DNA from: Protoeuglena noctilucae
Lineage: Eukaryota
Length of the DNA: 64,000 nucleotides
Direction: 5' to 3'
NCBI GenBank assembly: GCA_958009085.1
Contig: OY253678.1
Location: 868,001 to 932,000, forward strand
The notes beneath the pieces were generated by a model. It ran no database searches. It was not told where the DNA came from and saw only the letters and a list, made by a program, of their open reading frames with translations. Below, piece by piece: positions 17,264-49,387 of the stretch (positions are counted from its first letter, which is position 1; every line of letters starts with the position of its first letter). The translations under genes were made by a program, and so were the position numbers.

Positions 17264-18392
17264 TCAGCAGCCAAGCCGCGACCCCATCCCACACCCCGAC
17301 ACTGTGCACTCGCTGTGCGTAAGGGTGCTGTCGTGGATGCTGCAAAGGCCGTAGTGCTTGCAGTTAGTGATCTCCACGCCAACCACCTCCGCATGACCGC
17401 CATCTAGACAGAGCACCCCGTGCAACTCCTTGGACCCCGTGATGCGGCCCCCATGCATGACGACCCTGCTGCCCTCGCAGCTACAAAGCACACCACAACG
17501 CCTGCAATCAGAGATCTCCACATCCTGGACCTCCGCCTGACCACCCCGTTGGCAGGACACCCCGTGACGATCCTTACACCCCGTGATGCGCCCCCCATGC
17601 ACCACCACCCTGCTACCCACACCATCGCAAAGTACTCCGCACTTCTTGCAGTCGTCAATCTCCACGCCCATCACTTCTGCCTGACCGCCCTCTTGGCAGG
17701 ATACCCCGTGCAGCTCCTTGGACCCTGTGATGCGCCCTCCCTGCACCACCACCTTGCTCCTGCAACCCGCACAGCACACCCCTGTCACAGGCGCATCCGC
17801 CACGTGCGTGTCCACCAGCGTTGCTTCCCCACCCCTCTCGCACCTCACCCCCGTCCCCACCATCCGTACCCCTTCCAGCCGCAGCTTCCCACCACTCCTG
17901 ACCCTCAATGCGTACCCCTCGCCCAACGGGGCGTCCGACACCCGCAGCGTCCCGTTGCGGATCGTAACCGCCACGCCAGCCCCCGCCACCACCACCTCGC
18001 ATTCAAGCTCCACCTCCCTGCCCCCCAGGTCCACCACCCCGCCCCTCCTCGCCACCTCCGCCACCTCCTCCCCCGTCGTCGCAATCACCACCTCTGCCGC
18101 CGCCGCATCTGCCCCGCCCCCCCGCTGTCCCGCCCTGCCCCCAGCCCGCTGCGCCCGCCTCCGCCTCCACGTCCGCCCACGCCAGCCCTGCCCCCCGCAT
18201 CTCCGGCAACCCCACCACCGCCTCCCACGCCGCCCGCCTCCGCAGCTCGCTCGGCTGCCCCAGCATGTACAGCAGCGCGACCCACTCCTCGTCCGTCCGC
18301 TCCGCACCCCGGCTCGCAGTCTCCGCCCCGCCCTCGCCCGCCCCCGCCTGCTGCGGCCCGGCCCCGCCTCCCACCCCTCGCCCCCTCTCCAT
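17264..18392 (-). CDS. Intronless right-handed beta-helix (pectin-lyase-like) repeat protein, short copy; +1 frameshift near 18120 (pseudogene or homopolymer error)
   Basis: 48-aa units of the form GVxCxxGGxAEVxxVEIxDCxxxGVLCxxxGSRVVVxGGRITGxKxxH. The N-terminus (MERG...EEWVALLYMLGQP) is in a different frame from the repeats. A C7 run at 18117-18123 corresponds to 6 nt (ctcccc) in the paralog. Confidence 0.75.
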
Positions 18393-19160
18393 GCTCCCGC
18401 CCCGACCCCTGCGCACAGCCACACCGCCGCAGCATCAGCACCGGACCTCCGCACCCGCTACGGTCGTCGCCCCAGTCAGGGCCCAAGACGCACAGCTGCA
18501 CAGCCGCCCACGCAGAACTGCCCATCTCCACCACCCGCCCCCTGCGCATCCGCCGCCCCCGCCGCCCCCTCGCCTGCGCCCTCTCATGACGTCTGGACGT
18601 CTGCGCACCCTCCGCCGACCTCGCACGCCGCGATCGGCTGCGGGGGCCCCGAAAGCACAGACGGTCATTGCAGCGCCGCTCGCACTCGCATGCGCTCGCC
18701 GGGGCATGCGTCTCGCTGCCGCAATCATCGCTCGGATGGCCACCGACATCGCTGCGACTCCTCGCGCGACGATGCGAGGCCTCGGGGGTCCCCACAGATC
18801 CCACTGCGCTCTCTCTGAAGTTGCTGCGAAAACGGAGGCCCGCCACGCGGCGCGCCGTCTCGCTATGCCCTGCAGCCTCACCACTCACCGATCAGAGCCA
18901 CATCAAAGCAATTAAGACGACTCCAGACGGCCAAATCGCGCAGCTGCACCTGAGGGTGCAAGCCCGTTGCTGCCTGCCAACAAGACGTCCGCGGAGACGG
19001 ACAGCATTCAATGGCCAGGCGATAAGTGGACCGAGCTGGCTCGTGCGGACACCGGAGGGGCCTCGCGCAGAGAGGCCCGAAACCCCGTCTAGGTTATGCC
19101 TGGACACACCGCTGTGCCAGCCCCTGCGGCCGCTGGTCCGCGTTGAGGTGTCGCAGGGAT
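17940..19160. repeat. Direct segmental duplication, copy A (partner ~48010-49262, offset ~30,070 bp)
   Basis: 18381-19021 reads identically to 48451-49091, and similarity decays on both sides. Confidence 0.92.
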
Positions 19161-20934
19161 GCAGCGGAGGTCGGGTACAAGGCTGTGGCTCGGGGAGGAG
19201 GCGCTGGAGATCGGGCATGACCGAGCACAGAGCGGTGGGAGGTGGGTCCTTGGGGTGCGGGTACGGGTGCAGGCGAGGCGGTGCGGGTGATGTGGGCGCG
19301 GATGGGGACAAGGCGTTGGCACTGCTCGCTTGCTGTCCCATCTTGTCTTGTAAAACCAGCTGTCAGTGCAGGCTGCACGGGCCACGGTCGTGACTTCAGC
19401 CCCAGAACAGCATGGCTAAGACGACTGCCCTGGTGGGCTGGAGTGTATGTTAGGCGACTGGGCATTCAGGGAGGGTTCTGTTCTGTGGGGACATGGGGCG
19501 GGAAGCATGGGGGTGATGCGCTGAAGCTCAAGCCGGTGAGCGGTCCATCGCAACCCAGCCTCGTCTTGCGACTTGAACATGGGCACATGCTCTGAGAGAT
19601 AAGCTCCGATGATAGCTTGGGAAGACTGAAAGCTCTGCAGCCTGGGGACCTGCCAAAGGGGCCAATGTGGCCGGGGGTGAGTCTAGCGCCCTACACAACG
19701 CAGGAGGGTGCGCGTGCGTCGGTATGCTAGAGCTGCTCGTGCTGGTGCGCGGGACTGGCCATGTGGTCCGCTATTTGGCTCTTGTACCACTGCCTGCAAG
19801 GGTGGCAAGGGTGGCAAGGTCGTGTTAGGTCAGACAAGAACCGCAGAGCGCCCACGGCCAGGACGCGTGCGCCGAGCCAGCGACTCACGTGTGTGCGTGA
19901 GAAGTCTCTGAGAGTGTCATCTGGGCCAGCCGCTTGAACGCGATGGCGCGCTCCTCCTTTGTTTTGGCGAGGTGCGCCGCTAATGGCGCCGAGGAGTACA
20001 CCTGGGACGCGGGAGGTGGGCCAGGTTCTTTGGGTCGGCATTGAAAGGCGCAGGTCCACGGCGAAGCGCGTCTCGCGAGCCAGCCTCCGCCTGCGCCTTG
20101 CTGGCATGGCATGCATGCCCACCTGCTGCGCCCTCGAACCGGAGTAGGTCTCGAGCATCCAGACCGCGGGGCGGTCAGAAGGAGGGCGACTGACGACGAT
20201 GGTGAGGCGCGGGTTGACGGTGGAGGCCCCAGGACCGGAGGACCTCCCGCTTGAGCTGGCAGGAACTCCCCTCCCTCCGCGCACCGTCTCAGGGGCGGGC
20301 GCGGTGATGTTCGATGCGTTCTGCCATAAACGACGGAGGAGCGTCGATTGCGCCTCGTTATATCGGCTATATCGGGCCCAGCTGCTGCAGGGATGCCACG
20401 CGGCACCGCGGCCTCGTGATTCGATGAGCGGGCTCTCACCGCATGCTCGGCAGAAGCACGTATGAGAGGAGGCACGCCTCCGCGGAGAAGCATGCCGACG
20501 GCGTACATCGCTACCGACCCGACGGATTGCCTGGGGTGCGTCACTGGCTCCCTCGAAGGCGTATACGCGAGATATGCTTATCGGAATGCGTATGCGACGC
20601 GTGGACGAGCGAAGGTCCCGACGATTTGTGCAGAAAAGCCGGATTCAGAAAAGCAGCGCGACAGCTCGGCTTAGACGGGGACGGTTAGGGCGCGGGTGGT
20701 TGCTATGATGTCGCTGACGCGTGGCTGAGGTACTTATGGGCTGTGGCCACCCAGCTGACGTCAGACCCGCGGCCCTGAGTCGGGAATGTGTGCCAGTCAC
20801 ACGTCGAGTCGACCCTTTCGAATGCATGCACCTCGCAGGTCAAAAGAAGCTTGCTGTGCCGGCGTCGGGCCAGCAAAGCGTCGACAGGCACCCATGAGCA
20901 ACAAGATTCTGCGGTGAGAGTCGGCAGCGATGCG

Positions 20935-23001
20935 ATGCGGTGGGCGTCTTGCCCCGCAGGTTCTTTCTTGCGCCAGGAGCTGCCTCGTCGTGAGCTTTCT
21001 GGGGTCTCGACGTCCACCAGGTGCTACGCACGCAGGGTCCTTGCTACGCCCGTCTTCCGCCGACATTGGGTGTTTCACACGCTGCGAGACGCACAACAAC
21101 AGGTGCGAGGGAAGGATCGGAGTGCGTCCCAGGGCAGGGGCGCCGTAAGGAGACTCGAGCGCGCCACGGCTGCCACGTCACGACACGACCTGCGATGTCG
21201 ACCGCTCCCCGCGCGAGACGCCTAGATGCACCCGCTCGCAGGTGGAGAATGGCCTCCATCTCCGGGCAGAGGGCGCGGGCCCGCGATCCAACAGCCTGGC
21301 CGATCGCTGGGCGCTGGCGAAGCGGCAGATGGGCAGCTGGTGGTCGGGGACGGTGCAGGCGCGCATCAAGGAGCTGAGGGACGCACGGGAGGGTTCCCTG
21401 AAGAATCACGTGTTCCGCGTCATCCAGGCTGTGCTGTCCAGGGAGCACCCCGCCGAGAGTTTCCTCAAGAGCGTCCCCACCGAAGGCCCGGTGAGACCGG
21501 AGGGAGGAGGAGGGGGCTGGCACGGAGAAAGGTACCTGCGTCAGGCGTCCGAATCTTTCTTATTCGCTTCCGCCCTCGCATGCAGGTGTCTCTGGTCGTC
21601 CACTACCCCGCGGGCACCGCCGAGCGTCTCGTGCGCCGCCGCATGCGACTCCTGGCGCGTCGGGGGCGGTACCACTCTCGCATGCGGGCGCTCTTCGCCA
21701 TGGGCACTCTCCTCGTCAGGTGCAGCCGGGCACCGCGCCTGCCCAGCGCCACGCTTATGCCGTGCACGCCCCCTCCGCCATGCCCCACACCCTTGCCAAG
21801 GGATACTCTTGCCTCCCCTCCACCGCAGCCCCCTTCTTCTCCTGCCGATCCCCCTCTCCAACTTCCCCGTCTTCTTCTTCGTCTACCGCCTCCAATCCCA
21901 CCACCAGGCGCTGGCCGGGGCCAGGCAACTGCAGGCCGCGTTTGCTGCCTATGACGCTGCTGAGGGGAGGGACATGAGGGACCGGGCGCTGTTCGGGGAA
22001 GAGGCGGGCCGGGACGGAGGGGCAACGACGCGCGGAGCGGACGGGCCGGCGGGACCCAGCGGGAGTGTGTCAAATGCAGGTGTGTCAGGCGATGGTGTGT
22101 CCGGTGCGGGGGTGCCGTGGGCGGGGCCGCCGGTCCCTGGTGCGGTGTTCTACGAGGCGGTGCACCGGAACGCGGTGTTTCAAAACGCAATGGGAGCGAG
22201 TCGGGCTGAGGTGCCGGGTGGAGGGGAGGGGGTTGGTTCTGGGGCCGGCCCTCGGGAGGAATCTGCGGGGGGCGGTTCAGCATGGGCCGCAGCGACGGCG
22301 GGGCTGGGGCGCGTGGCGGGGATGGCGGCGGAGGTGTCCGGAGTGGGCCCGCGCCTGAGTCAGGGCGTTGCCTCTGTGGGGGAATACGTGGATGCGGCCT
22401 GGGCCCGGGTACGGGCCGTGGACCACGAGCGGCGGCGGGTGCTGAGGTCCCTGCAGGGGGCGCGGCGGGCGGTGGAGGCGCGCATCGAGGCGCTCATGCA
22501 CCGGGGACGGGGTGATGACGCGGGTGGAGCGGGAGCGGTGAGGGGCGTGAGGCATCGGCGGTGGGTGGGTGGGGTGGCTGGTCTGGGTTGCCGCATGGTT
22601 CCCAAGCGGGTCCGTTCCTTGCACGCAGCACATGGAAGACTCGGACTCTGATCCGAGCCGGGCGTCGGAGTTGTGGGAGGCGCTGGGGCACGCCGGGCAG
22701 CCGGTGCGATCGTGGCGCGACCCGACCATCCCTGTGTTTGTGCCCTCTCCCGAGCTGCGCGACATTCTGGCCACCGAGGAGCTTGGCGAGTTCCCCTTGC
22801 AGGCGAGACGCGAGCCTTTGCGGGGCGCTGGGTTTTGGGCGAGCGTCGCCAGCGACGTCCCGCACGCTCACGGCTCTTCCGCAGGACCAGGCGGCTTTCC
22901 GCATCGGGCGGCTGTTCGAGACGCGGGGTTTCATGGAGCAGGTGTCCAGGGCGCGTCGCAAATACTCGGGGGCCTTTTTCTACAGCAGGATCGGTGTTTG
23001 A
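20935..23001 (+). CDS. Mitochondrial K+/H+ exchange-related (Mit_KHE1-like) protein
   Basis: Spliced MR|VLATPVFRRHWVFH, ESFLKSVP, VHYPAGTAERLVRRRMRLLARRGRYH, SPLLLLPIPLSNFPVFFFVYRLQSHHQALAGARQL and a later FVPSPEL motif, matching my recollection of this family. Confidence 0.7.
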
Positions 23002-23479
23002 CCGATGATGTCACCGTGCCGCTGCTTACGCGGCGCCCGACTGGAACGTCCGCGTCGGCGATTCGGTCACGTGTTGCTTGAACATTTCATCCAACCGCAC
23101 GGTCGCCCGGGCAGACGCAGCGGCTCCGCATGCCAGCGTCCCACACTCGGCGTTCCTGCGCGACGCAGCGAAGGCCTGCGCGACGGGTCTGTCCGCAGAC
23201 ATTGTTTGCATGAAAACACGCGGCCTGTCGGGGGTCGCGAGGGCTGGGGTCCTCCTCCTGGTCGGGTCGGGCCTCGTGTGTGAAGCTGGGAGAGTTCTAG
23301 GGCGCGACCATGGGTGAGAGGCGCCCCTGTGCCTAAGAGAAAGCATGTCAAGCGACAACTAGCTTCGTGCAAACATGGTTGGGACGCCGGGGCCCGCTGG
23401 GCGACGGGCTAACGACCTTGGGGCTCTCACGTGCCACCCCTCGCCACCTTGAGCACTCCACGCGCCCACCCGCAGGGCC

Positions 23480-24440
23480 GGGCCGTCCGTTCGCGGCATG
23501 CCGCAGGGACTCCCGCGCAGGCTTCTCGGTGCCGCGCAGAGCGAAGCGTACTACACCTCCTGCGCACCCGGCCCCGGTCCCGTCGTCGCCATGTCGTCCC
23601 CTGCCAATCCCGGCGGCGTCACGGTCGTCGGCGGGCCGCCCTACGACCCCAGCGCCATAAACTTCGCGAACGGCGTCTCGACGGGCTCGCAGAGGCGCGC
23701 GGTGCATTGCGCCTCGCCACCCTGCCACGCGCATGTCAAGGCGCCCTCACCGCACGCCCTCCTCGCCCACGCAGCCCGGCATCCCTCGCCGGCCCGGCGC
23801 AGGGCCAGTGTTCCGCTGGGTGGAACGCCGCCTGGGTCGCCGCCCGCCTCCCGTTGCCCGGGTTCGACCCTTGGCCCCCGACCCGCACCATCCACCCTTT
23901 GACCATCGCCGACCTACCTCCAAACCCCCAAATCGACTGCGGTCCCAATGTGCTCGTCCCCGCCGTCGCCGGCTGCCTGCGCGGACCCACCCCCGAGTGC
24001 TGTGCGACGCTGCAGGTCCTGTTTAGCGAAGAGACGCGGCTCCCCAGCCGCAACTGCCTCTGTGAGACGCCAGCTGCTATGGTAGCATCGCTATGCTTGC
24101 CTCGGTCGCCCTACATGTGCTGGTCTCGTGTTTTACTTGGTCTCCACGGTCACCACCATGTTATGACCACCATGACCCACCACCGTCTCGCATACCCGCC
24201 GTGTGACGCCATGCGTGTAACCCTAACCCTAACCACTTCCATCGCCGTTCTTGCCATAAGCATAGCATTCCGCCACGCATGGCGCGTAGTTTGCGTCGAC
24301 GCATACTTGGGTTCCTCTGCTTTCCTCAGGTGTCCCTCAGGTGGCCCAGCAGGCGTACCTTCAAGGCGCGTCACAGAACACCAACCTCATTGCCGTGTGG
24401 GAGGCGTGCTATGCCACCTACCAAGTCGACTTCTTCTGGT
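23480..24440 (+). CDS. Hypothetical small Cys/Pro-rich spliced protein (boundaries uncertain)
   Basis: Coding-like segments SEAYYTSCAPG...PYDPSAINFANG and GQCSAGWNAAW...IDCGPN...GCLRGPTPECCATLQ...NCLCE, with plausible splice sites. Confidence 0.4.
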
Positions 24441-24913
24441 GAGCTGAGGGGTGCTGTGCTGATACTGACAATGCTAGTGTTGATTACTGATCTGCTGCGT
24501 ACTGATTGTTGATCACCAATCAGTCGTTTCCTGACAAGCAGTGGCACCAAGTCTAGGTCTACAGCAAGCCCAGGCAATGCCTCTTAGCACGTACTCGCTC
24601 GCAGGTTTACGCAACAAGGCGGCATGTGCCCTCTCTGACCCGACGCCCCAGCGCCACCCAGCGATTCCCAGTAGGGTAGCTAACGAGGAAACAACCAACC
24701 ATTGCGCTTCTTACATCATTTCAAACCTCGCCCGTGCGATGGCAACCAGAGACATCCCCGACGAGTATGCGAGTACTGTACGGACCTCGCCATGTCGACA
24801 ATGGCTTCAATAAGTGGCGTTCATCCATCGACCCACAGCCCTGCTCAGCAGTGAACCTGTCATCTATCGCTTTCAGCGCACCTCTCCCGCCAAAGAGATC
24901 GTCCCACGTCGCA

Positions 24914-27900
24914 TTATGCGCGTCGCTTGGCCTCCGCCACCACTGCCTCCAGCGATGCTGTCGCCCACTTGCCCCCGATCAGCGCCCGAATGGTCTGACT
25001 GGCCTGGTCAATCGCCAAGCTCACGCCACCGAGGGAGTACACAGGCAGACCCTCGTGCTGGCGACCGGGACGGGGCAGGAACTCGAACCCATTCTCAGTC
25101 GCGTACATCTCCAAAAGCTCACGCAACGGGGCAGGGGCCCCGTCCGGCTCGGGAGGCGCTGCGTCGGACGGCAGCGGCGGGGCTGGCGTGGCCTGGGGCG
25201 GCTCGTCCGCATCCCAGAGCGACGCCGGGCCGCGGGGGGCGGGGTGCGGGGGGGCGGCAGAGGGGACGGTATAGACGAATGGAGCGGCGGTGGCGGTGGC
25301 GGCGGTGCGGGCGGGGGTGGCGCGAGCGGCCACAACCCCCGCTTGCGCCGCCGCGAAGTGCCTCCGGATCGGCTCTTGGCTGGCGATGTCTTCTGGCAAT
25401 AGGCCCTGCCACCCCGCCAGCCATTGGACCACCTCGTCGTAGTTGGGAGATGCTCCCAGCCAGTGCTGGAGGACCTCGTGGATTTTGGGGAGCACGTGGG
25501 ACTCGAACAGGCGACCCAGCAGAGACGCGGAGAGCGTGCCGTGCCACTGTGTATGGGGGGGGGGGGTGCGTGGGGGTGTGTCAGTATCGGCATGAGTGCG
25601 CGCGTTTGTGTGATGGCGGAGACCGGCCTGGGGCACGCGTGCAGGCACGCGGCTAGCAAAACTTGTTCACTACATGTACACTTGCCACTGTGGTTTAGTC
25701 CCTACCCTCACATGTGTCCTAACCTGACCTCACTTCTCTCCACCACCACCCCCACCCCCGCACCCACCAACCCCGCACCCGCCATACCATTACCCATGCC
25801 ACATCCAGCGTCCCACGACATGCCAGTGTCACCTGCAGCGCCCACTCGACCGGCGCGAGGTCCTGGCTGGCGGGGTTGACGGCCATGGCATCGAGCGCAT
25901 ATGCGAGCTTGGGCATGATGCTGCGGTGCACGAGGGCCGCCCAATCCCTGGGATGGAACACCCCCGCCCAGGGCCGCAGCACGGCGACTGCGCTGGGATC
26001 GGAGGGGTGCCACTCGTGGAGAACGGCGGTGAGCTGGTGGCGTATGGCGGGGAACGACGCCTCCAATCGGTCCCCCAAATGGGGCAGCCAGGGGTGCGTC
26101 CAGCGGTGGAGGGGGACGGGGTCGGTGCGGGGGTCCCAGGCGGCGACGGCGGACTCGATCTGAGGGAAGGGGGGGAGAGGGGAGGGGTGTGAGTGATGTG
26201 AGGGGTGTGGGTGAGTGAAGTGGGGGGAGTGGGTGTGCGGGGGTGTGATGTAGCGATGGCGGACTCGATCTGGGGAGTGGGGGGAGGGGAGGGGAGGGGT
26301 GTGGGTGGTGTGAGGGGTGTGGGTGGTGATAGCGATGGCGGATTCGATCTGGGGGTAAGGGGAGAGAGGTGGGCGGTGGGTAAGGGTGGTGGTGCTGGAA
26401 TGGGAGTGGATAGGAGCGCTCATGATCCACATGTCAGCTTCTCTGCGCATTCTAGCTTCTCTGCATCCACACCCCCTCACCTTAAGCACACTATGCCATC
26501 CATCTAGACCAGTTAACCCCCCTCACCTTGGGCAGCGCCATGGACTGCAGCACCACGCCATTGGCATGTGACCATGCTCTCCAATTCTTTGCATCCACAT
26601 GACCCTCTCATTGATCTCACCTTGGGCAGCACCATGGACTGCAACACCATGCCGTGCATGTGACCCGGCATCGCCCCCTTCCACGCCTCCACCAGCGTCA
26701 ACGCCGCCTCGGGATCCCTCACATCCCACTCGGTCATCAGGAAAGCCCTTATGCGGGGCAGCACGCCCTCCTCGCAGACGCGGCAGCCGGGGTCCTCGGG
26801 GGCTCCGGGGAAGGAGGGGGAGGCGCTCATCAGGGGGAGCCACTGGGGTGGAGGGAGTGGATTGAGTTACAGTTTGTGAGTGGGTGAGTAACAGTGAGTG
26901 GGGCGGGGGAGTAACAGTGACTGGTAACAGTGACTGGGGTAAGGGAGCTGGCTCTCCCCAGCCCTACTTACCAATCCACCGCCCGACACCCCACACACCC
27001 CACCCCACCCCACCCCACCCCACCCCACACACCCCACCAACACCCCAACCCCCCCCCCCGCCCCTCACTCTTCGGAACTCCTCCGCCCCCCTGCCTGGGT
27101 CCTTCGCCACGTCCCAGTCCCTCAGCAGCGACCTCAGCAGCGGCCCAGCGAGGCCAGTTGCGAACGAGTGCAGTGCGAAGAGACGATAGTCGTCGGGGTG
27201 GCGGTGGCGGGCGTCCGAGAGGGCGGCGTGCATGGCGGCGAGGGTGGCGGTGGGGTCGTCAGCTGGTGAGGACTGCGGGGGCGCGGGTGGTGGGTGGTGG
27301 GTGAGAGTGGTGGGTTAATGGTGGAGGAGGAGAGGTGGGTTGGTTGTGGTGGGTGACAGGAGGGTGGGTGATGGGTGAGAAGGATTAAGTGAGCACCTAC
27401 ACGCGCTCTCACACCTTTGCCAGCACCATGCATCCATGCGCCCACCCACACATGCTCCCTCACCTTTGCCAGCGTCATGCACTGCTGGCATGCCACCTGC
27501 AGGTGTTCCCGCACCCGCAGCTCCCTCTCCACCTGCAGGGCGACAACGAAAAGAGAGGCACTGAGTACTGAACCAGACATAGTCACAGTGCTCGATGCGA
27601 TGCGGATCCTGTCCACGACGCCCACCACTCCCTTCCCTCCTTTCTCTCATCATCACCACTCACCCACTACCACCTACCGTCACTCTCTCTCACCTCCTCC
27701 ACCTCCCCCCCCGGCCTCTCCCTCTCCCTCTGTTCACCACTACTCATCACCCTCTCTCGACCATTACTCATCATTACACACCCACCACCCCTCCCTCACC
27801 TCCTCTACCTCCCCCCCCAGCCTCTCTCTCTCCCTGGCCAGCACCTCCATCGTGTCCTTCTGATGACGCAGACGAGCGTCCAATCGCTTCAGATCCGCCT

Positions 27901-30900: not shown

Positions 30901-31060
30901 GCGGGGAAGCGGCGGCGCAGCGCCGGTCCAGCCACTTGCGACGCGGTCGTGCCCTGCGCAGCCCCAGCACAGGTCCAGGAGCGTGTCGGTCCCCTCACCA
31001 GGTGCCCCCCTCGAAATCTGCGTCGGTGTCGAAGCGGGCGTAGTGCTGTTCCTCGTCCAT
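24914..31060 (-). CDS. TFIP11: Tuftelin-interacting protein 11 / STIP / Ntr1 spliceosome-disassembly factor (TIP_N, G-patch, GCFC), about 14 exons
   Basis: Contains MDEEQHYARFDTDADFEGGTW|IGDEFFY, DYSAPVAFVSK, G-patch FEKYSKGIGSKLLAK|MGYRPGEGLGKKRTGIARAIEV, LRHNITLLVDLAE, WDPRTDPVPLHRWTHPWLP, PNYDEVVQWLAGW and a C-terminal GFEFLPRPGRQHEGLPVY. Confidence 0.93.
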
Positions 31061-38157: not shown

Positions 38158-38689
38158 CGCGGGGGTGCGCTGACACAGGTGCGCTGACGAGAGGGGCTCT
38201 CAAGAGGGAAGCGAAGCGGCGCGGATGTCTGGAGACCCAGAGCCCTTTGCAAGGCTGCCGGAGAGGAGTGTCGGTAACTGCCGTGGCAGGCATGTTAGCG
38301 ATTTCGGGGTCCGGCTGATGTGGGCACGCTCTGCGCCAGCTGCCGCTTTCTCTGGGTCTTGCAATGACGGGCGTGGGTGGCTGCCTTAGTAATCGCGCAA
38401 CCGTGCGGGCTTGTCGTCACAGGCTCCGCTGCCCTGCGCTCGTACACTTCCTAACATCCTTGGCTGCCGCGTTGCCTTGCCGTAGCGCTGCTCGGCCCGT
38501 CGACCCTTTGGCGCTTTCTGCTGCTGGCTGTGCCTGCGCGGCGCACGACACTGTTGCACGAACTCTCTTCGACGCTTCGCCGTCAACTGTGAACTGCCGG
38601 CAATGCATTAGGGCCGGTCAGGCGCGTGGGCCATCACAAGGGGGAGGGAACATGCACACACAAACCGAGGCGTGCGCGAGGTGGCCGCG

Positions 38690-40000
38690 TCACATCCGTG
38701 CGCGCTCTGCCCCGTCGTCCTCCACCCGCGGCTGCTCCTTGCGTTTCTGCGATATCGGAGCCGCATAAACTTCGTGTCGCCCATGCGCACGCCAAAGGCC
38801 TTGTCAAGCCGTGGCTCGGCACGGGCCGCCAAGCCCTCGCCTTGCCGCTCCCCAGGCGCTCGAACACTGCCCGCAGCGACGCAATAGCCGCCGGCTGGGA
38901 GAGCTGGTCCCACCCAAAGTCCGCCTCCGCTTCGGCAAAGTCGCGCCACGCCGCCCCGAAGTCCGCCCGCATTAGGTGCTTGGTCGCTCGGCGGCCCTGG
39001 TCGGGGTGCCGCAAGAGATCGCGCACACGCCGCTCCGCCTCCGCCACCACGAGCGCACAGGGCACCGCCGCTTGAGCCATGCCCAGCTCCAGGCAGCGGT
39101 GTGCGGGAGCCATGGTCCCGGAGAGGCACATGTCGGACGCGGGGCCCTCCCCGACGACGCGCGCCATCAGCGCGGACCAGTATTTGGGCACCGGAATCCC
39201 CAGCGCGACCTCATTGAGGCCGCAGCTCGTCACGTCTGCAGGCGAAGGGGCGAACGGCATCCAAAGAGCGGGTCTTGGCGGGTCGCTGGGGCAGGGACGG
39301 CTATGGCGCAACAAAGAGACGCGGCCCGCACCCGAGATGACGCGCACGTCGCTGCAGAGAAGCACCGCCGTTCCTCCCGCGGGGCAGAACCCACGGGCGG
39401 CTGTGGCGGTGACCAGCGGCGAAGTATAGAGGCGGGAGAGGAACGTGGTGAGGATGACCCAGAATTCCTGCGTTTGGGGGACGGCAGGGACCGTGAGGGG
39501 CCGCGGGGACGCGGCGGCAGGGCGGTCCGCGTCTGCCACGCACCTTGTAGCGCTCTCGCGTCGTCAGGGGCGCGTAGAGCTCTGTGAGGTCGTTGCCCGC
39601 CATGAAAACGTCCTTCTGCACGCGTGGGACGCGAGAAACCCGTTCCGGCGCCGCTCGCTCGGCGCGGAGGGGGCTAACAGCGGCAGGCGGGGCGCGTCGC
39701 GGGGAGGAGCCGCCGGGGAGCGCAGCGGAGCGTCGCTGCGGGACAAGCAGGGTGTGCACGGCATCGCGTCGAAAGGGCGCCCTCGGAGGGCGAGCGCACC
39801 TTCACGCCGGAAGCGATAACCAGAGCACGCGTCCCCGGCTCTTGCTCGCAGGCCTCCAGCGCCGACAGCATGCCCTCCCAGAGCGATCGGTCCATGGAGT
39901 TGACAGGCTCGCGCTGGATCCACATGATGGCGCAGCCATCGCCTCGGTGCTCGAGCGAGACATGGTCGCTCACGCGCCTCGAGCCCGTCGGGGCGCTCAT
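38690..40000 (-). CDS. Enoyl-CoA delta isomerase (crotonase superfamily), probably peroxisomal
   Basis: Contains REPVNSMD, VFMAGNDLTELY, LSRLYTSPLVT, GFCPAGG and GLNEVALGIPVP. The predicted last exon is KRKEQPRVEDDGAERARM*. Confidence 0.87.
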
Positions 40001-41140
40001 CACACAGGCACAGGCGCCCTCGGCGAAGGTATCGACAGGGGATAGGGTCGCACGAAATCCTCGCGGAACTGCGGCCCCTCGGGTTCGTTCTGCAAAAAGT
40101 GCACAGGCCAGTCAGACTGGGGCACTCTCAGCGTCGGAGGCGGTGAAGGAGCCGTTTGATTGCATGACATGACGACAACTCGCGCAGTCAAAGGGTCAGT
40201 CAACGTCTCCGGGAGGCAAATCTCGCTGTCAGGATTCGCTTTTCGCTGCAACCAGCCTTCAGGGGGGCGCTGGCCTCGCTGAGATTTTATTCCTCTCGAT
40301 AGCTTCCACAAGCATGAGGGAACTGGCTCGGCTGAAGCTCTGAGAAACGAAAACGCCCCTTTCAGGTGAAAACGGGGCTCCGGAACGCTCACCACGCGCT
40401 CGATTCCCGCCTTCTGCTGTATCATCGCACGCGCCGGTGGCTTACGGCGGTGAAGTCGACCCGGGGCTTCAGGAAGCCCGCTCTCCCATTCCCCGGCCTC
40501 TCCGTCGCGGAAACGTTTCGGAGGGTGTCGTTTTCGGCTCTCGTATCCCGTTTGCTCCGTCGCGGGGCCTCTCCGCCCTCCCCCGGCCCAGCGCGGCGCT
40601 GCCTTGCGCATACATTTTGTCTTCTCGCGCTCTGGGGGACGCGGAGGGCACGGCCGGGGCCGATTGGCTTCATCGGAAGCGTTCTTCGTCGCGCGTGTCG
40701 CGCGGTGGCGGCCTCGCGCTCGGTCAGCGCGTCCCCGCGCCAACGACCTGTTCGGCACCCGCCCCGCCGCGCGCCCGCGAATATTCGCCGCGGGAGGGCC
40801 GCCGCGCTGTCGCTTGGCGTCCCGTCATTTCACAACTCCGCCCTGCACCCCGGCCGCGCCGCAGTGTTTTCGCGGGAGGGGTACCCAACTGCGCGCCGAC
40901 CCATCTGACGTCCGGACCGCCCCGCGCGACCCCCCGCCCGCCCCGGCTGCGGCGGCGCGGCTATTCCGGACGCTCGCTACCCGCGCCGCGGTTAGCGCCC
41001 AGAGGAGCACGGGAGGGAGCGAGAGGTGCGCGTGGCCCCTCGTCGCCTTGCCCGCCGCCGCCGGCCGGCCTCGTGCCCCCCTCCGGCCGGCCCCCCGGTC
41101 GTCGTTCGCGACTTGTTTCATTTCCTGCCCGCGCCGCAGG

Positions 41141-44100
41141 ATGATTCGCGACCCGGTGGTGGACGCTTCCTCGGCCCCTGGCATGCGTTTCAGCTTGGGC
41201 CGCCTCCGCAGCTGGCTGCCGCAGTCCCTCGTGGGCAGGGTCATCAAGCCCAACCCGGACGCGCGCTCGCGGGACGCGGACGGCAACGGGGACGAGGACA
41301 GCATGTCGGTCGACCTCTCACGTGAGACGTGCCGCGCATCGTCGCGTGCCTGCCCATGCCAATGGCCACCATTGCCATCCCCACCGGCCTGGAGGCGTCA
41401 CGAGCAATGCGAATTCTGCTACCTTTCCTCTGTAGAGTCTGTCTTGCTCTTGCAAATGCCCCGCCTCGCTCTCTCAGCTCTTTGACCTCCTGCTCCTGCT
41501 CCCGCTCCCCTCCCCAGACGGCCCCAACGCCCCGCCCCGCCCCGCCCAGCCCTCGGAGTCCCCCCAGGGCCCCAAGGACGGCAGCGCGGTGTCGAGCCAG
41601 ACGGCGGGGTGGACGGTTTCCAGCGTCGCCTACACCCCCACGTCTGGCGTGGACATGCTTCGTGCTACGGCGTACGCGCCAGTGAACGAGCTCTCCTCGA
41701 AGTCCAAGCCGTCGCTGGAGTACCAGCCCCCGCCGGGCGCGGCGCTGGCGTGCGCCCCGCAGGACAAGGCTCCGTCGAACGAACACTCGCCCGTGCTGCA
41801 GATGGTGGGGGCGGCGGTCGACATCCCCCGCAAGGTCCCGTGGCCCTGCGTGTCGACGCGGTGCCCCCCTGCGATGCGCGACGCGCCCGTGGCGTGGACG
41901 GCGGCCCGCATCCGCCGCCTGTTCCCAATCGGCAAGGGCTTCATGTCTGAGGTGTACCACGCAGTCGACACGGCCTCGGGGACGCAGGTGGCGCTCAAGG
42001 TGTACGACAAGTCCAAGGTGAGACTGGAGGGGTGGTGCTCCCGCCAGCAGAGCAGCGTCTTGTTCTTTCCGCATACGCACCCCGCCCACCCACACGCAGC
42101 CCCACACCCCCACCGCCACCCCCACTGCCACCCCCACCCACCCACACCCCCACCCCCTCCCTCACCCTAGATGCACCGCCGCGACGTCGACCAGGTGGAG
42201 GAAGAGGTGGCCATCCACATCCACCTCACGCACCCCAACATCCTGGGCCTCTACGCGGCCTTCGCGGACGCCCAGCACCTCTTCATCGTGCTGGAGCTCG
42301 CGTCCGGGGATGATTTGTACAAGCGCATGTCGCGCATCCCCGTCTCGGAGCCGCTCATCACAAGGAGGTTCCTGCAGCCCATCCTGTCGGCGCTGGAGCA
42401 CTGCCACGCACGGGGCATACTGCACAGGTGAGGGAGAGGGTGGCAGTGAGTGAGTAGATGGGTTGCCCGCCGGTTGTCCTTTGCATACATTCCATGTGCT
42501 TCGTAACGCCCTCGCACCCGCCCCCCACCCGCACCCACCCTAATACCCCCCCCATCCCCCATCCCCCCAGGGACCTGAAGCCCGAGAACGTGTTGATGAT
42601 GGAGGACCAGACGTGCAAGCTGTGCGACTTCGGCTTCTCGATCAACACGGGCGTGCGTCGCCCCGTGTCGCGGCTGGGCACGCTCGACTTCATGGCCCCG
42701 GAGATCGTCATGGCGGGGAGGAAGGCGAGTGATGGTAGTGATTATTGATGGTTGATATGCGAGATGGACAGGATTAGAGGGATGTGACGGTGGCAATCAC
42801 CCACCTCCCTGCACCCACTAACACCACCCCACCCCTCACCCCACCCCCACCCCACCACCCCCCACACCCCTCCCACCACTCTTCCTTCACCCCACCTCAC
42901 CCCCCCAGCACCCCACCTCACCCCACCCCCACCCCACCTCTCACCCAGCACCTGGACGGCGTGAAGGACGAGGTGCACAACGACGCCGACAACTACGTCC
43001 CCAAGAGCGACCGCCCGTCGTACACCTCCGCCGTGGACGTGTGGGCGCTGGGGGGCGTGCTGTACGAGCTACTGGTGCGCGTCACCCCTTTCGCGTCTCA
43101 ATCCAAGAACCGCACCATGCGCAAGATATGCGGGGGGGAGCTGGTCATACCCGACACGCTGTCTCCGGAAGCGGCGGACTTCGTCAGGCAGTGCCTGAGG
43201 GTGGACCCGGCGGAAAGGCCCTCGTGCTCCCAGCTGCTCGCGCACCCGCTCGTCGCCAAGCACTGCCCGGAGGTGGCGGCGGCGGCGAGGGAGAAGCTCG
43301 CCATGGTGAGGGACGGGAGATGGGAGATGAGGGATGAGTAGATTGAAGAGGTGTGGTGATTGGGTGAAGCGTGTATATGTGATGGGAGATGAGAGGTGAG
43401 TGGCGGCGGCTGTTGGGGAGAACTTGCCATGCTGAGGGACGGGAGATGGGGGTGGGATGGATTGAGTAGGTGTGATGAGATATGAGTTGGGGTGAAGCGA
43501 GTAGTGAGGTGATAAGGTGTAAGCGTAGTTGTCAGTAAGCCTATCCAGTCCCACTCCCGCCATCAGCTCACCCTCACCCTCACCCCCACACCGCCCACCC
43601 ACCCCCCACACCCAACACCCCACCCCCCACCCACAGGACGCCCTCTCCGGCCCCATGTCCTGGGCAGTCTCCGCGTCGAGCAGCGGACCCACCAGCAGCG
43701 GAGTGAGCGCCGCCCACGGCCCCACCCACGCCGTCCGCCCCACCGCCCCCGCCCCCGCCCCCGCCCTCCAGCACGCCCCCACCTGGGCCCCGCGCCTCGT
43801 CAATGCCCCAGGCAGCTTCCCCGCCCCCGCCCCGCCCTCCCCCGCCGCCCACTCGCTCCACCAGCGTCCCCCGCCCCCGCTGCTACCCACCATCGAACCT
43901 CGCAGTCCGGTGGCGTCGCTGGGGGGCTCCAAGTGCCTCTCCCCCGTCGCCCCGCCTCCCCGGCAGTGGGGCCGCGCCGCCACGCGATCGATGGCGCCGT
44001 CTGAGGTGATGGGGGACGTGCCGGCGTCGCCTGTGGGCGTCAGCAGCGGCAACGGGGGCGGCTTTGGGGCGGCCCACGCCGACGAAGTTGGGGGGTTCCC

Positions 44101-44552
44101 GGCCGCCGCCCTCGTCTCGCCCACCAAGGTCAGTCTGGGCTGCAGTAGTGGTGTGTCATGATGTCATGGCAAGCTCCAATCTGTGCCTGGTCGTGGTTGT
44201 GTGACTCGTCTTGGTCGCCCCTCACGCCCACCTCTTCACAGCCCCCATCACCACCGCTCACCCCTCTGCAACCCCCACACCCCACCCCCACCCCCACCCC
44301 ACCCCCCAGGTCATGCGCGGCTGGGACGGCCCCGGTGCCCCGGTCCAGAAGCGCCACTCCATCGAGGGCATTCGGCGCGCGCAGGGCGCCCTGCAGCCTC
44401 TTTCCGAAGAAGATAACGCCGCTGCCGTGGCGGCCGCCCTGGGGTTCACACCCGGGATGGGGGGCGGGGTGGCGGTGGGGGCGTCTCGGCCCATCGTGCG
44501 CACGCAGAAGCGGCGGTCGCAGGACGTGCCATCCATGGGGCCCATCATATGA
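41141..44552 (+). CDS. Aurora-like Ser/Thr protein kinase
   Basis: Contains IGKGFMSEVY, VALKVYDK, EEEVAIHIHLTHPNILGLYAAF, HR|DLKPEN, DFG, RLGTLDFMAPE and VDVWALG. Low-complexity N- and C-terminal extensions. Confidence 0.88.
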
Positions 44553-45607
44553 GCGAAGGGCTCATTACCTGGGCTTGGGGCACGTTACATGGGCTTTGGG
44601 CTCGCTGGGCCCATCACTTGAGCAGAGATGTGGTACGACACGCACGGCGCATGATGGGATGGGCGAGGCTCCTCACCACCTGTCAACGCCGAGCGACGTC
44701 AGGTGCCCGCCTCGGCCCTCATGCCCCTCGTGCCATGCAACGCCCCCCAGTCAGCTCTGCTCTGCGCTCTGGGCACCAATACCCCGCCCCCAGCAACCCC
44801 TTAGCACCCCACACACATCAACGCCCCTAGGGGTCATACCCACCCACCCCCGCGCATGCCATGCTACCCCAGGCACCTGGCAGGCCCGCGAGCCGCGCCG
44901 TTACGTGCCCCGGCCGCCGCCTTGCCCGATTTTGCCCTACCTTGTCTATGCCAGAAAGTGCCAGAAGCTACTGGGCTCCCCACGCCCAGCCGCCACGCGC
45001 CCGGTGCCTGACTCAACCAGAAGCGCTTTGTTTTACTGGCTTTGTTCAAACCGGGGATGGTGGATGTGGGCTTTCTGGTCGAAGGGCGCTGCGCGCTCTC
45101 CTGCGCCCTCTCACGCCGGCTGCCACATGCCGCCTGCCGCCCGCGCTGCCCTGCACCGTGGTTCTCTTACCACAGCCGCCCGGCAGGGGTTGGTTGTGCA
45201 ATGCAATGCAACCCCATCCCCATTCTGCCGGAGTGGCTTGGCAGGCGCGACTGCGTGTGCGTCAGCTAAGGCCCGTCCCACCGCCCCACCCACCCCGGGC
45301 CCACCTATCCCGCCCTTTGCTGGCACCCCCGACCGCCAACTACGGAGTCCATCCCAAGTGCCTTCCCCATTGCGCCGTATGAAACATGGACTATGAATGA
45401 TGGACTTAGAAAGCAAACATAGAAGCGACTCTTTTGACTACCCATGGCAGTGCTACCTGAAAGGCAGGGTACTGCGTTGCTGCGTCGCTGGCCGTGGCTC
45501 TGTCAAGGGCGTATCCTCTCTGTTCCGTGCCCCCACGGGCCCTGTCCTGACTGGCGGTCACGCGTTTGAAACGAGTGCAGCGGTGTCGGTGTCAGAGAAG
45601 CAAGGGT

Positions 45608-45708
45608 GCTGTGCAGAGGAGCATGGGCGCTGTGCAGACAAGCATGGGCGCTGTGCAGCTGTGCAGACAAGCATGGGCGCTGTGCAGCTGTGCAGACAAG
45701 CATGGGCG
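45608..45708. repeat. Short tandem repeat (CTGTGCAGACAAGCATGGGCG, about 4 copies)
   Basis: Directly visible 21/29-bp periodicity in intergenic DNA. Confidence 0.85.
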
Positions 45709-46044
45709 ATGTCAAACAATCATTGGCTTCACAACAGCTAGTGCCGTCATACAATTGCATCTAAATCGAATTTGAAGCAGCGGATGTAGGTAACGAGGTG
45801 AGGTGAGCGTGTCTGCACTGTCCACACAAGGCCGGTACATGCCACAGCGACCTCCACGCAACATGAAACACACGGCAGCGCCTCCCTTGCCATCCTTGAT
45901 ATCGGCCGGCACATCACTGCTGCGGGGACGGACGCGGGACGCCTCAGGGCACGCGGCTGCGCCCCTGCCCACCACAGCGCAGGTGAGGATGGTGACGCAC
46001 ACCGTCGCATCTCGGGCTCACCTCGAGGCGCCAAGGGTCCCCGC

Positions 46045-48462
46045 TCAACAACGAAAAGTAGATCCTTTCTTGCACCCCGACACTGTGCAGTCGCCATGTT
46101 TGAGAGTGCTTCTGCCGTAGTGACAAAGGCCGTATTGCTTGCAGTCGGTGATCTCCACGCCCACTACCTCTGCCTGACCGCCCTCTAGGCAGCACACCCC
46201 GTGCAACTCCTTGGAACCCCTGATGCGGCCCCCATGCATCACCACCCTGCTGCCCTGGTCGCAGATTAACACACCGCTCTGCTTGAAGTCAGCGATCTCC
46301 ACGTCCGGCACCTCTGCCTGCCCCCCCCTTTCGCAGCCCACCCCGTCACCATCTTTTACCCCAGTAATACGCCCTCCCTGCACCAAAGCCCTGCTACCCT
46401 CGCCATCGCAAAATACACCGCACTGCTTGCAGTCAGTAATCTCAACGCCCACCACCTCCACCTGCCCGCTATCTGAGCAGCATACCCCGTACAACTCCTC
46501 AGACCCCGTAATGCGCCCTCCCTGCGCCACCACCCTGCTACCCACACAAATGCAGAGCACTCCGCAATCCTTGCAGTCAGTGATCTCCACATCCCGCACC
46601 TCTGCCTGCCCGCCATCTTGGCTCTGCATCCCATTGCCGTCTTTACACCCCGTGATACACCCTCCCTGCACCACCACCCTGCTACCCTTGCCATCGCAAA
46701 ACACGCCATTCTCCTTGCAGTCGGCAATTTCCACATCCCGCACCTCTGCCTGCCCGCCCCCTTCACAGCCCACCCCGTCACTATCTATTGGCCCCGTGAT
46801 ACTCCCTCCCTGCACCAAAGCCCTACTACCCTCACCATTGCAGAATACACCGCACTGGTTGCAGTCGGCGATCTCCACACCCACTACCTCTGCCTGACCC
46901 CCCTCTACGCAGCATACGCCGTGCGACTCCTTGGACCCCGTAATATGCCCCCCATGCACCACCACCTTGCTACCCTGGTCACCACTAAGCACTCCGCACA
47001 GGTTGCAGTCGGCGATCTCCACGTTAACCAACTCTGTCTGCCCGCCCTCGCAGCACCACACCCCGTGCCCCTCTTTCAACCCTGAAATGCGCCCCCCCTG
47101 CACCACCACACGGCTATCCACACTGTCGCTGATCACTCCGCACCGCTTGCAGTCAGTGATCTCCACGTCCCGCAATTCTGCATGCCCGCCTATTTGACAG
47201 CACACTCCATCATAGTCTTTGGACCCTGTAATGCGGCCACCCAGCACCACCACCCTGCCGCCTGTGGTGCTGACAACCCCGCTATGCCTGCAATCTGAGA
47301 TCTCCAAATCTCGCACCTCTGCCTGCCCGCCTATTTGACAGCACACCCCGTGCCCCTCTTTCAACCCTGAAATGCGCCCCCCCTGCACCACCACACGGCT
47401 ATCCACACTGTCGCTGATCACTCCGCACCGCTTGCAGTCAGTGATCTCCACGTCCCGCAATTCTGCATGCCCGCCTATTTGACAGCACACTCCATCATAG
47501 TCTTTGGACCCTGTAATGCGGCCACCCAGCACCACCACCCTGCCGCCTGTGGTGCTGACAACCCCGCTATGCCTGCAATCTGAGATCTCCAAATCTCGCA
47601 CCTCTGCCTGCCCGCCTATTTGACAGCACACCCCGTGCAACTCCTTGGACCCCGTGATGCGGCCCCCACGCACCACAGCCCTGCTACCCTTGCCGTCGCA
47701 GAGGACTCCGCTCTGCTTGCAGTCGGCAATCTCCACACCCACCACCTCTACCTGCCCGCTATCTGAGCAGCACACCCCGTGCAACTTCTTAACTCCCGTA
47801 ATACAACCCCCTTCCAAATTCACCTTGCTCTCGCGACCCATACACCACACCCCAATAACAGGCGCGTCTGCCACATTCGTGTCCACCAGCGTCACTCGCC
47901 CACCCCCCTCGCACTGCAGCCCTGTCCCCACCACCCGCACCCCTTCCATCCGCAGCTCCCCGCCCTCAGTGACCCTCAATGCGTACCCATTACCCAGCTT
48001 GGCATCCCGCAGCCGCAGCGTCCCGTTGCGGATCGTCACCGCCACCCCAGCCCCCGCCACCACCACCTCGCATTCAAGCTCCACCTCCCTGCCCCCCAGG
48101 TCCACCACCCCGGCCCTCCTCGCCACCTCTGCCACCTCCTCCCCCGTCGTCGCAACCAACACCTCTGCCGCCGCCGCATCTGCCCCGCTCCCCGCTGTCC
48201 CGCCCTGCCCCCGCCCCGCTGCGCCCGCCTCCGCCTCCACGTCCGCCCACGCCAGCCCTGCCCCCCGCATCTCTGGCAACCCCACCACCGCCTCCCACGC
48301 CGCCCGCCTCCGCACCTCGCTCGGCTGCCCCAGCACGTACAGCAGCGCGACCCACTCCTCGTCCGTCCGCTCCGCACCCCGACCCGCCGCCTCCGCCCCG
48401 CCCTCGCCCGCCCCCGCCTGCTGCGGCCCAGCCCCGCCTTTCGCCCGTTGCCCCCTCTCCAT
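46045..48462 (-). CDS. Intronless right-handed beta-helix repeat protein, long copy (11 internal 47-48-aa units plus capping units)
   Basis: Uninterrupted ORF of about 805 aa from MERGQ..., built from the same Cys-rich GVxC...VEIxDC...GGRITG repeats as the 17264-18392 copy. Confidence 0.88.
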   Translation of the reverse strand: MERGQRAKGGAGPQQAGAGEGGAEAAGRGAERTDEEWVALLYVLGQPSEVRRRAAWEAVVGLPEMRGAGLAWADVEAEAGAAGRGQGGTAGSGADAAAAEVLVATTGEEVAEVARRAGVVDLGGREVELECEVVVAGAGVAVTIRNGTLRLRDAKLGNGYALRVTEGGELRMEGVRVVGTGLQCEGGGRVTLVDTNVADAPVIGVWCMGRESKVNLEGGCITGVKKLHGVCCSDSGQVEVVGVEIADCKQSGVLCDGKGSRAVVRGGRITGSKELHGVCCQIGGQAEVRDLEISDCRHSGVVSTTGGRVVVLGGRITGSKDYDGVCCQIGGHAELRDVEITDCKRCGVISDSVDSRVVVQGGRISGLKEGHGVCCQIGGQAEVRDLEISDCRHSGVVSTTGGRVVVLGGRITGSKDYDGVCCQIGGHAELRDVEITDCKRCGVISDSVDSRVVVQGGRISGLKEGHGVWCCEGGQTELVNVEIADCNLCGVLSGDQGSKVVVHGGHITGSKESHGVCCVEGGQAEVVGVEIADCNQCGVFCNGEGSRALVQGGSITGPIDSDGVGCEGGGQAEVRDVEIADCKENGVFCDGKGSRVVVQGGCITGCKDGNGMQSQDGGQAEVRDVEITDCKDCGVLCICVGSRVVAQGGRITGSEELYGVCCSDSGQVEVVGVEITDCKQCGVFCDGEGSRALVQGGRITGVKDGDGVGCERGGQAEVPDVEIADFKQSGVLICDQGSRVVMHGGRIRGSKELHGVCCLEGGQAEVVGVEITDCKQYGLCHYGRSTLKHGDCTVSGCKKGSTFRC

Positions 48463-49262
48463 GCTCCCGCCCCGACCCCTGCGCACAGCCACACCGCCGC
48501 AGCATCAGCACCGGACCTCCGCACCCGCTACGGTCGTCGCCCCAGTCAGGGCCCAAGACGCACAGCTGCACAGCCGCCCACGCAGAACTGCCCATCTCCA
48601 CCACCCGCCCCCTGCGCATCCGCCGCCCCCGCCGCCCCCTCGCCTGCGCCCTCTCATGACGTCTGGACGTCTGCGCACCCTCCGCCGACCTCGCACGCCG
48701 CGATCGGCTGCGGGGGCCCCGAAAGCACAGACGGTCATTGCAGCGCCGCTCGCACTCGCATGCGCTCGCCGGGGCATGCGTCTCGCTGCCGCAATCATCG
48801 CTCGGATGGCCACCGACATCGCTGCGACTCCTCGCGCGACGATGCGAGGCCTCGGGGGTCCCCACAGATCCCACTGCGCTCTCTCTGAAGTTGCTGCGAA
48901 AACGGAGGCCCGCCACGCGGCGCGCCGTCTCGCTATGCCCTGCAGCCTCACCACTCACCGATCAGAGCCACATCAAAGCAATTAAGACGACTCCAGACGG
49001 CCAAATCGCGCAGCTGCACCTGAGGGTGCAAGCCCGTTGCTGCCTGCCAACAAGACGTCCGCGGAGACGGACAGCATTCAATGGCCAGGCGCTAAGTGAA
49101 CCGAGCTGGCTTGTGCGGATACCGGAGGGGCACCGCGCAGAGAGCGCCAGAGGCCCGAAAAAGAGGCCCGAAATGACCTATGGCAGCTAGGTCATGCCTG
49201 GATACACCGCAGGCCTCTGTGCAAGCCCCTGCGGCCGCTGATCCGCGTTGAGGTGTCGCAGC
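48010..49262. repeat. Direct segmental duplication, copy B
   Basis: Partner of 17940-19160; 48451-49091 reads identically to 18381-19021. Confidence 0.92.
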
Positions 49263-49387
49263 GATGCTTCGTGTCCCCATGCGTTTTCACATCCCCGCTC
49301 ATCTCACGCCCCCTCACTGCAGCGACACTGTCAGCTACGCGGCGCCCTCGCCCCCAGCTATGCAGCGCCCACTTTGCCCACGCCCCC

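Follow-up and report, generated by a model that had tools for sequence, protein, structure and literature searches.

The question raised by this locus is why two beta-helix genes should be perfectly identical in their non-coding upstream DNA and divergent in the coding repeats beside it. The window, by which we mean the whole 64-kb stretch that was analysed (positions 868,001 to 932,000), lies on a contig of a 26.3-Mb, 27-contig, GC-rich genome assembly of Protoeuglena noctilucae, and the genes around the locus have an algal look. The first-pass annotation took the pattern as the reverse of ordinary paralogue decay and saw in it a diversifying recognition system, possibly spread as a mobile cassette. 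We give about an even chance to the proposal that the two genes, termed copies A and B, are shortened representatives of a recognition-protein family which acts in the cytosol, is confined to this lineage and evolves by birth and death; in it a groove would bind, a kinase and a RING1/Rcat module would signal, and the repertoire would be renewed in the germ line.

Copy A and copy B

The features of the two copies are as follows:

17264 to 18392, minus strand: copy A, a family member without kinase or RING, frameshifted
18117 to 18123, minus strand: frameshift of copy A, a run of seven bases with one extra base (+1) relative to B and C
18165 to 18329, minus strand: helical segment of A, homologous to the helices after the Rcat-like domain of full-length paralogues (E 1.8e-4)
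46045 to 48462, minus strand: copy B, an intact 805-amino acid ORF without kinase, RING or Rcat
46130 to 47811, minus strand: repeat array of B, 144-bp units (48 amino acids, two coils) in a single exon
47057 to 47638, minus strand: recent in-frame 285-bp tandem duplication in B, with units 3 and 5 identical
48235 to 48372, minus strand: helical segment of B, a homologue of the post-Rcat helices by sequence comparison and model

Copy A possesses two near-full repeat units and matches the Pfam Beta_helix family (PF13229, E 1e-15). Its first ORF (18003-18392) specifies only 129 amino acids, the beta-helix cap, the two internal units and the end coil lying in another frame, since the extra base in the seven-base run places the N-terminal segment and the beta-helix in different frames. 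The frame break is probably real because the same 129-amino acid protein is recorded in another public assembly, on one contig of 201,526 bases. Copy A is probably a young pseudogene, and of the two genes of the first-pass annotation only B has an intact frame.

Copy B comprises a disordered N-terminus, the helical segment, the beta-helix cap, 11 internal units (nine of 48 amino acids and two of 47) and an end coil. Both copies exceed the PF13229 cut-off of 25.9 bits, B with 137 (E 4e-40) and A with 58, and an AlphaFold model of B built from 17 family rows (mean pLDDT 89.8) shows three helices followed, from about residue 100, by a continuous right-handed beta-solenoid. The contrast of two against 11 units on a beta-helix, which had been read from the letters, was thus confirmed. 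The fold matches of the model are beta-helix proteins, namely phage tail proteins, alginate lyases and epimerases, and adhesins (best E 2.5e-6, identity 7-14%); a language-model search with B gave a best score of 0.84, which is a lead only. In two DNA-like read sets, X1 and X2, the 285-bp duplication appears as a 297-bp contig covered about twice as deeply as its surroundings. Two metatranscriptomes supplied RNA contigs that match parts of B exactly, at a depth of 2.5-13 against 2.5 over a neighbouring intron, and expression of B is not established. It is an open, sensor-only copy, either a partner or decoy for kinase-bearing paralogues or a gene that has not yet decayed; for B alone, neutral decay is about as likely as function.

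The shared block and the mosaic copy

Four further features concern the DNA upstream of the two copies:

18380 to 19021 and 48450 to 49091: identical block of 642 bp, offset 30,070, all 642 positions matching
18409 to 18573, minus strand: relic phase-2 intron of A, identical to the B copy and homologous to the paralogues' intron after the last kinase exon
48479 to 48643, minus strand: relic phase-2 intron of B (GC-AG), with the sequence around both splice sites alignable to the post-kinase intron in five paralogues
48449 to 48453: switch point in B, where A-type sequence upstream gives way to C-type sequence in the coding part

The identity is as exact as had been reported, and weaker homology continues past it to 19162/49267. 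The block occurs three times in the genome, all on one contig, in the neighbouring family copies A, B and C; copy C lies on the same strand 48 kb beyond B, and a fourth copy is cut off by the contig end. A collapsed or polished assembly is an unlikely source, because the read contigs of X1 and X2 carry both A's flank and B's flank and the block stands at about twice the depth of its flank in both. The block contigs reached depths of 95.8 and 108.3 in X1 against 56.9 for unique flank, and of 21.7 and 35 in X2 against 15, figures which are a hint and not a copy number. Among the variants listed for the short-read contigs, those inside the block are alleles of copy C. On this point the first-pass annotation, which had itself considered a collapse, stands.

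In a three-way alignment of A, B and C, all 73 informative sites from 18889 to 18380 pair A with B, and from 18379 to 17820 the count becomes 44 sites for B with C, 9 for A with B and 7 for A with C (Fisher p 7e-28). At its 3' end B can be aligned over a longer stretch to C and to the fourth copy than to A, and a tree of the beta-helix cap pairs B with C (98/88). From the site grouping, the 3' alignment and the cap tree we conclude that B is a mosaic, and gene conversion or recombination among paralogues, as first suspected, is upheld. The block is a recent conversion or crossover tract between neighbouring paralogues and contains a relic intron; it is not the functional constant region that it had been taken for. 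Perfect non-coding identity beside divergent repeats is therefore the product of recent recombination between paralogues, which is an ordinary process.

Because the relic introns align with the paralogues' post-kinase intron, and the helical segments match those of the full-length paralogues, copies A, B and C are best described as last exons plus intron in which the kinase exons have been replaced. The genes had been called intronless, which is right insofar as each is a last exon and wrong for the block, which holds the remains of the post-kinase intron. RNA contigs that cross this intron in B are unspliced.

Several other roles for the block were considered. It had no match in Rfam at E 0.1, and a structured RNA is thus not supported. 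A kinase remnant or a promoter shared by the family was rejected since past the last ~60 bases only A, B and C match. An Ala/Arg-rich coding exon within the block, spliced in phase to B, is likewise not supported: its frame is broken in C and the RNA contigs are unspliced among the joints listed.

The family and its kinase and zinc modules

With B as query the genome gave 87 matches, which merge into 48 family loci on 17 contigs; as 56 of 86 candidates were scored, the family has at least this many. The pair that was first noticed therefore belongs to a large family with 1-11 near-full units per locus, and its variable repeat number, part of the original proposal, is confirmed. The arrays are single open frames. 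At least 15 of the 48 loci are broken by frameshifts or stops, and the frameshift of L059 recurs in all four public sequences of its cluster. Ten loci lack a kinase, a state which arose more than once. A subtelomeric bias (median 0.38 of half-length, p 0.004) was set aside, as the clustered loci are not independent. A Pfam scan of seven family ORFs gave no ROC-COR, LRR or F-box match, and word-index searches of other eukaryotes (8000 candidates each) gave no relatives of the beta-helix family, the strong matches all being the organism's own loci.

The dispersal over 17 contigs and the mosaic nature of B might be read as the work of a mobile cassette, or of programmed (somatic) rearrangement joining a constant 5' part to swappable repeats. 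In five of 57 public proteins the N-terminus comes from one paralogue and the remainder from another, and one protein, P0165, has no exact counterpart in the genome (best match 75-77%), as such an origin would allow. The switches in those five lie inside a shared stretch, however, and may be assembly chimeras. Neither terminal repeats nor target duplications were detected, there being no 7-mer repeat at the ends of A and single 7-mers at B, and the block is confined to three neighbouring copies. No match to the repeat unit was found outside the two genes in the 64-kb window, which leaves no donor cassettes there of the kind used by lamprey VLRs. Read contigs from four of 23 listed runs were compared with B: X1 and X2 share a 1060-bp array contig without a difference, and no array-length polymorphism was seen, all listed joints having sides of 21-33 letters or known paralogue flanks, with no long-sided array joint among them. 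The 57 public proteins showed no change in unit number, although clustering at 90% identity may hide length variants. The array polymorphism among samples that had been anticipated was thus not seen, a mobile cassette is not supported, and we regard a cassette or programmed rearrangement as very improbable.

The fuller paralogues explain what A and B have lost. In its full form, as read from the genomic exons, a member consists of a kinase or pseudokinase (three exons), a phase-2 intron, a RING1 domain, a long helix, a Rcat-like zinc domain, a helical bundle and the beta-helix. The kinase domain (PF00069, E 1e-17), with its lysine, catalytic loop and DFG-type motif, is found in paralogues only and is absent from A and B. 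Among the 23 best genome matches to the family's kinase exon, 18 have a beta-helix directly downstream on the same strand, and nine of these 18 have a RING and/or Rcat-like zinc module in between; of the remaining five, four have RING and/or Rcat without a beta-helix and one has neither. In the loci read, the last kinase exon ends in phase 2, and the acceptor that follows it has the same phase. The catalytic aspartate is kept in L037, L040, L044, L050, L054, L064, L070 and L073 and lost in L039, L042, L045, L059, L062, L068 and L074. At L087 the same kinase-RING module is followed by a WD40 exon in place of the beta-helix.

The zinc module is present in nine beta-helix paralogues and absent from A and B. 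Residues 1-88 of its model align with the RING1 domains of ARIH2, parkin, HOIL-1 and HOIP with modest Z scores of 4.6-6.1 (rmsd 2.6-3.3 over 64-83 residues). Parkin and HOIL-1L occupy Foldseek ranks 1-5, no match lying under E 0.001, and the language-model neighbours are IBR, Rcat and RBR clusters (0.90-0.91). Pfam scans of the module gave no match over cut-off, while the public copy P0004 carries a precomputed PF26191 match; a search of solved structures with a RING/Rcat profile reached E 0.05 at best. The Rcat-like part was modelled with a pLDDT of 43-61 and had no structural match. A presumably catalytic cysteine occupies the Rcat-like position in eight of nine aligned rows, being deleted in L087, and the spacing around it was set against what we take to be the usual Rcat spacing. 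The catalytic histidine expected two residues further on is absent, alanine or valine standing there. As in RBR ligases, a RING1-like domain is followed by a long helix and a second zinc domain, in which a cysteine stands at the presumed catalytic site, and the coupling to a kinase recalls PINK1-parkin. Unlike RBR ligases, the module has no middle BRcat/IBR domain, its place being taken by some 45 helical residues that offer no zinc ligands, it lacks the histidine, and it has the kinase on the same gene. The RBR account in PMC3940038 states that RING1, BRcat and Rcat had always occurred together, with no exception known to it; since BRcat is missing here, the module appears by sequence and model to be RBR-like but outside RBR membership.

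The RING/Rcat profile detected 2167 clusters in other organisms at E 0.001. Domains were scanned in 70 of the best 150, mostly the longer ones, of which four came from the same organism. The 66 non-self proteins included 31 with a kinase, four with an SF1 helicase, three each with ankyrin repeats and LRRs, two with WD40 and none with a beta-helix.

Variation on one face and its possible meaning

Entropy was computed from 193 near-full units out of 281. It is highest (3.5-4.0 bits) at the outward positions 14, 16, 37 and 39, against 1.2-2.9 bits on the other two strands; the flanking loops are also variable, whereas glycines, inward residues and the two remaining strands are conserved. The variable positions line what we take, from the DSSP pattern and the usual nomenclature, to be the groove in which beta-helix enzymes bind their ligand. 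In 32 disjoint pairs of units at 20-30% distance, dN was 0.65 on the variable strand and 0.20 on the other exposed strands, giving the variable strand an omega of 1.29 (1.09-1.53) against whole-unit dS and 0.76 against its own dS. The repeat framework has an omega of 0.05-0.3. A partition tree is 292 long for the variable strand; the remaining strands, the inward positions and the turns give lengths of 53-98. The acceleration of one face of the repeats is firm.

Codon models were fitted to 134 units, after 16 divergent loci and one duplicate were dropped. With shared dS, positions 10, 14, 16, 33, 37 and 39, all on the variable strand or in the loop before it, gave an omega of 1.4-2.8 in four of four settings (2dL 38-175). 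With their own dS omega was 1.0-2.0, and the gain over omega=1 was 0, 2.0, 3.3 and 18.8, significant in one setting of four; IQ-TREE gave 1.01 for the four strand positions. These site tests are weakened by recombination between units, which inflates them, and by a tree that rests on 144 bases. The suspected diversifying selection thus holds under shared dS and in one setting of four when dS is free, and positive selection on the groove sites is likely but not proven. The study of brown-algal ROCO genes used PAML site models with shared dS (PMC3341825).

The likeness of the fold to phage tail proteins, alginate lyases, epimerases and adhesins, together with the hydrophobic stretch in which a few family members end, could indicate a beta-helix that binds or cleaves carbohydrate of the cell coat, scale, prey or host, as in pectate and alginate lyases and tailspikes. 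The groove, however, contains no conserved catalytic residue, its positions being the most variable of the unit, the identity to those folds is 7-14%, and the N-terminal part, with no signal peptide visible on inspection, consists of a kinase or of disordered, charged sequence. We consider a carbohydrate role hardly probable. Glycan binding by a sensor would also fit the recognition family proposed here.

An omega near 1 when dS is free is what would be expected if a few functional ancestors had given rise to drifting duplicates with a face that is merely unconstrained, A, B and C being decaying last exons. The proportion of broken loci, the many kinases without the catalytic aspartate, the repeated loss of the kinase, the weak RNA support for B and the many upstream ATGs in the unspliced block agree with this. 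Yet the outward positions of the other two strands are also exposed and have changed three to four times less, the tree lengths differ as given above, and B has kept its 805-amino acid frame through an in-frame duplication. Such largely neutral proliferation is unlikely.

The same architecture might instead be directed at the alga's own proteins, as an enlarged repertoire of ubiquitin ligases and kinases that choose substrates, comparable to F-box expansions. In FBXO11, part of an E3 complex, substrates are recognized by right-handed beta-helix CASH domains (PMC8825234), and the beta-helix would here have the same place as the recognition part of a ligase; the RING1/Rcat-like module and the kinases with intact loops in several loci are in keeping with this. 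FBXO11 is, however, a single conserved gene with an F-box and a UBR finger, and the family consists of dozens of fast-changing paralogues, with no F-box in the seven ORFs scanned. Fixed substrates should moreover conserve the binding face, yet that face changes fastest, and about a third of the loci are broken. We think it improbable, to much the same degree as neutral drift, that own proteins are the targets.

We therefore return to the birth-and-death family of recognition proteins. The architecture, the splice phases, the beta-helix fold, the variability of one face, the mosaicism and the death of genes are observed, and ligand binding, activity and a role in defence are inferred from them. 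The variable groove would bind a foreign or damage-related ligand, binding would switch on the attached kinase and RING1/Rcat module, and these would modify the ligand or a partner by phosphorylation and ubiquitylation. New specificities would arise in the germ line through in-frame duplication or loss of units, point changes in the groove, and conversion or unequal crossover. Copies A, B and C would go back to a gene that joined a kinase to a beta-helix, unrelated DNA having since taken the place of its kinase exons, and a recent exchange between A and B would have left the 642 bp identical. The likeliest, though putative, pressure is a pathogen such as a virus. The layout suggests an undescribed intracellular recognition system.

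Lineage-specific expansions of repeat genes are known in small green algae (PMC3491373). The brown-algal ROCO genes resemble the family as an algal multigene system of signalling plus repeat domains, with birth and death, variable repeat number, intergenic recombination, and selected sites on one face of a solenoid under shared-dS models. They differ in their signalling part, which is ROC-COR or NB-ARC and not a kinase with a RING1/Rcat-like module, and in their repeats: the beta-helix coils here all lie in one exon, without shuffling or intronic spare exons, and the ROCO-type shuffling first envisaged falls away. Lamprey VLRs also bind through the variable face of a solenoid; their germ-line gene is incomplete and is filled somatically from cassettes that flank it. 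Copy B, in contrast, is a whole gene in the genome, and the window contains no cassettes beside it. The nearest non-self sequence relatives of the repeats are two bacterial proteins with a beta-helix and an AAA ATPase, P0208 and P0209 (E 7e-11 and 7e-4); they too combine an intracellular beta-helix with a signalling-type domain, but the identity is 24-35% and the domain is an ATPase in place of kinase and RING.

A wider reading is offered tentatively, as a possibility that falls well short of even. The kinase with an IBR-less RING1/Rcat pair may be an undescribed and widespread signalling-ubiquitylation module of microbial eukaryotes with interchangeable sensors (beta-helix, WD40, LRR, ankyrin, helicase, perhaps EGF), which would have expanded in this alga, with the beta-helix as scaffold, into an intracellular immune repertoire of an NLR-like kind, its groove tuned by selection and copies that keep the sensor alone, such as B, serving as partners or decoys. 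A literature search, with most subscription papers and genome-paper supplements outside its scope, returned nothing on the kinase-RING1/Rcat-beta-helix architecture or on an IBR-less RING1/Rcat pair.

For the recognition of viruses and other invaders by single-celled algae this family is a concrete candidate, with dozens of paralogues in which a constant frame carries a variable groove and is coupled to kinase and ligase-like outputs of the same gene. If active, its RING1/Rcat pair, represented in more than 2,000 clusters and often fused to a kinase, would amount to an RBR-type ligase in minimal form, lacking the middle domain.

Possible replacement of the beta-helix, and shortened members

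Full-length members of the family combine a kinase, a RING1/Rcat-like zinc module and helices with a beta-helix, and departures from this order were found at several loci (numbered L, in local coordinates):

L087:5150-6200 (G000:C23, about 282650-283700), +, putative WD40-type repeat exon after the kinase, RING and helix exons
L086:1567-3966, -, calcium-binding EGF-like repeats after kinase-RING/Rcat on the same strand, without beta-helix
L089:2600-3700, -, calcium-binding EGF-like repeats after kinase-RING/Rcat on the same strand, without beta-helix
L097:1700-2600, +, internal deletion
L039:5879-6364, -, internal deletion
L048 and L050, starts, internal deletion

From the predicted exons, the WD40-type repeats of L087 appear to occupy the position held by the beta-helix in other members. 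The EGF-like repeats, which in L089 are preceded by a hydrophobic stretch, could represent a membrane receptor form at both loci, or else belong to a neighbouring gene. In L086 an RNase H-like stretch was recognized by eye (2281-2600, -) within a long frame downstream of these repeats. Through the internal deletions, beta-helix units or the helical segment directly follow the beginning or the middle portion of the kinase, and these fusions show that short forms arose by several independent routes. A hydrophobic stretch following the beta-helix forms the C-terminus of L044, L064 (end at 7370), L040 and L042, and is possibly a tail anchor.

Introns and surroundings of the intact kinase-less copy

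GC donors were located at the post-kinase intron of several loci (window 48643; L037, L068 and L070), which suggests that this genome commonly uses GC-AG introns. An RNA contig from run X8 (depth 13, window 48959-49495) spans from the final exon of the adjacent gene on the minus strand into the upstream end of the 642-bp block; that gene may have a 3' UTR overlapping the block, or may read through towards the 805-aa copy. Downstream of this copy lies:

window 45593-45712, near-perfect 29-bp tandem repeat, 2.9 copies

Divergent and public relatives

A Pfam search of the whole genome returned 112 matches, some at loci beyond the 48 counted, and more divergent beta-helix genes include:

G000:C13:897217-901423, three genes in tandem
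G000:C3:1292515-1295601, very long beta-helix array

Public family protein P0165, from a 2.7 kb contig, shares 90 identical residues with L049, the remainder being unlike any locus in this genome. It occurs once and is probably either a strain-specific recombinant or a paralogue.
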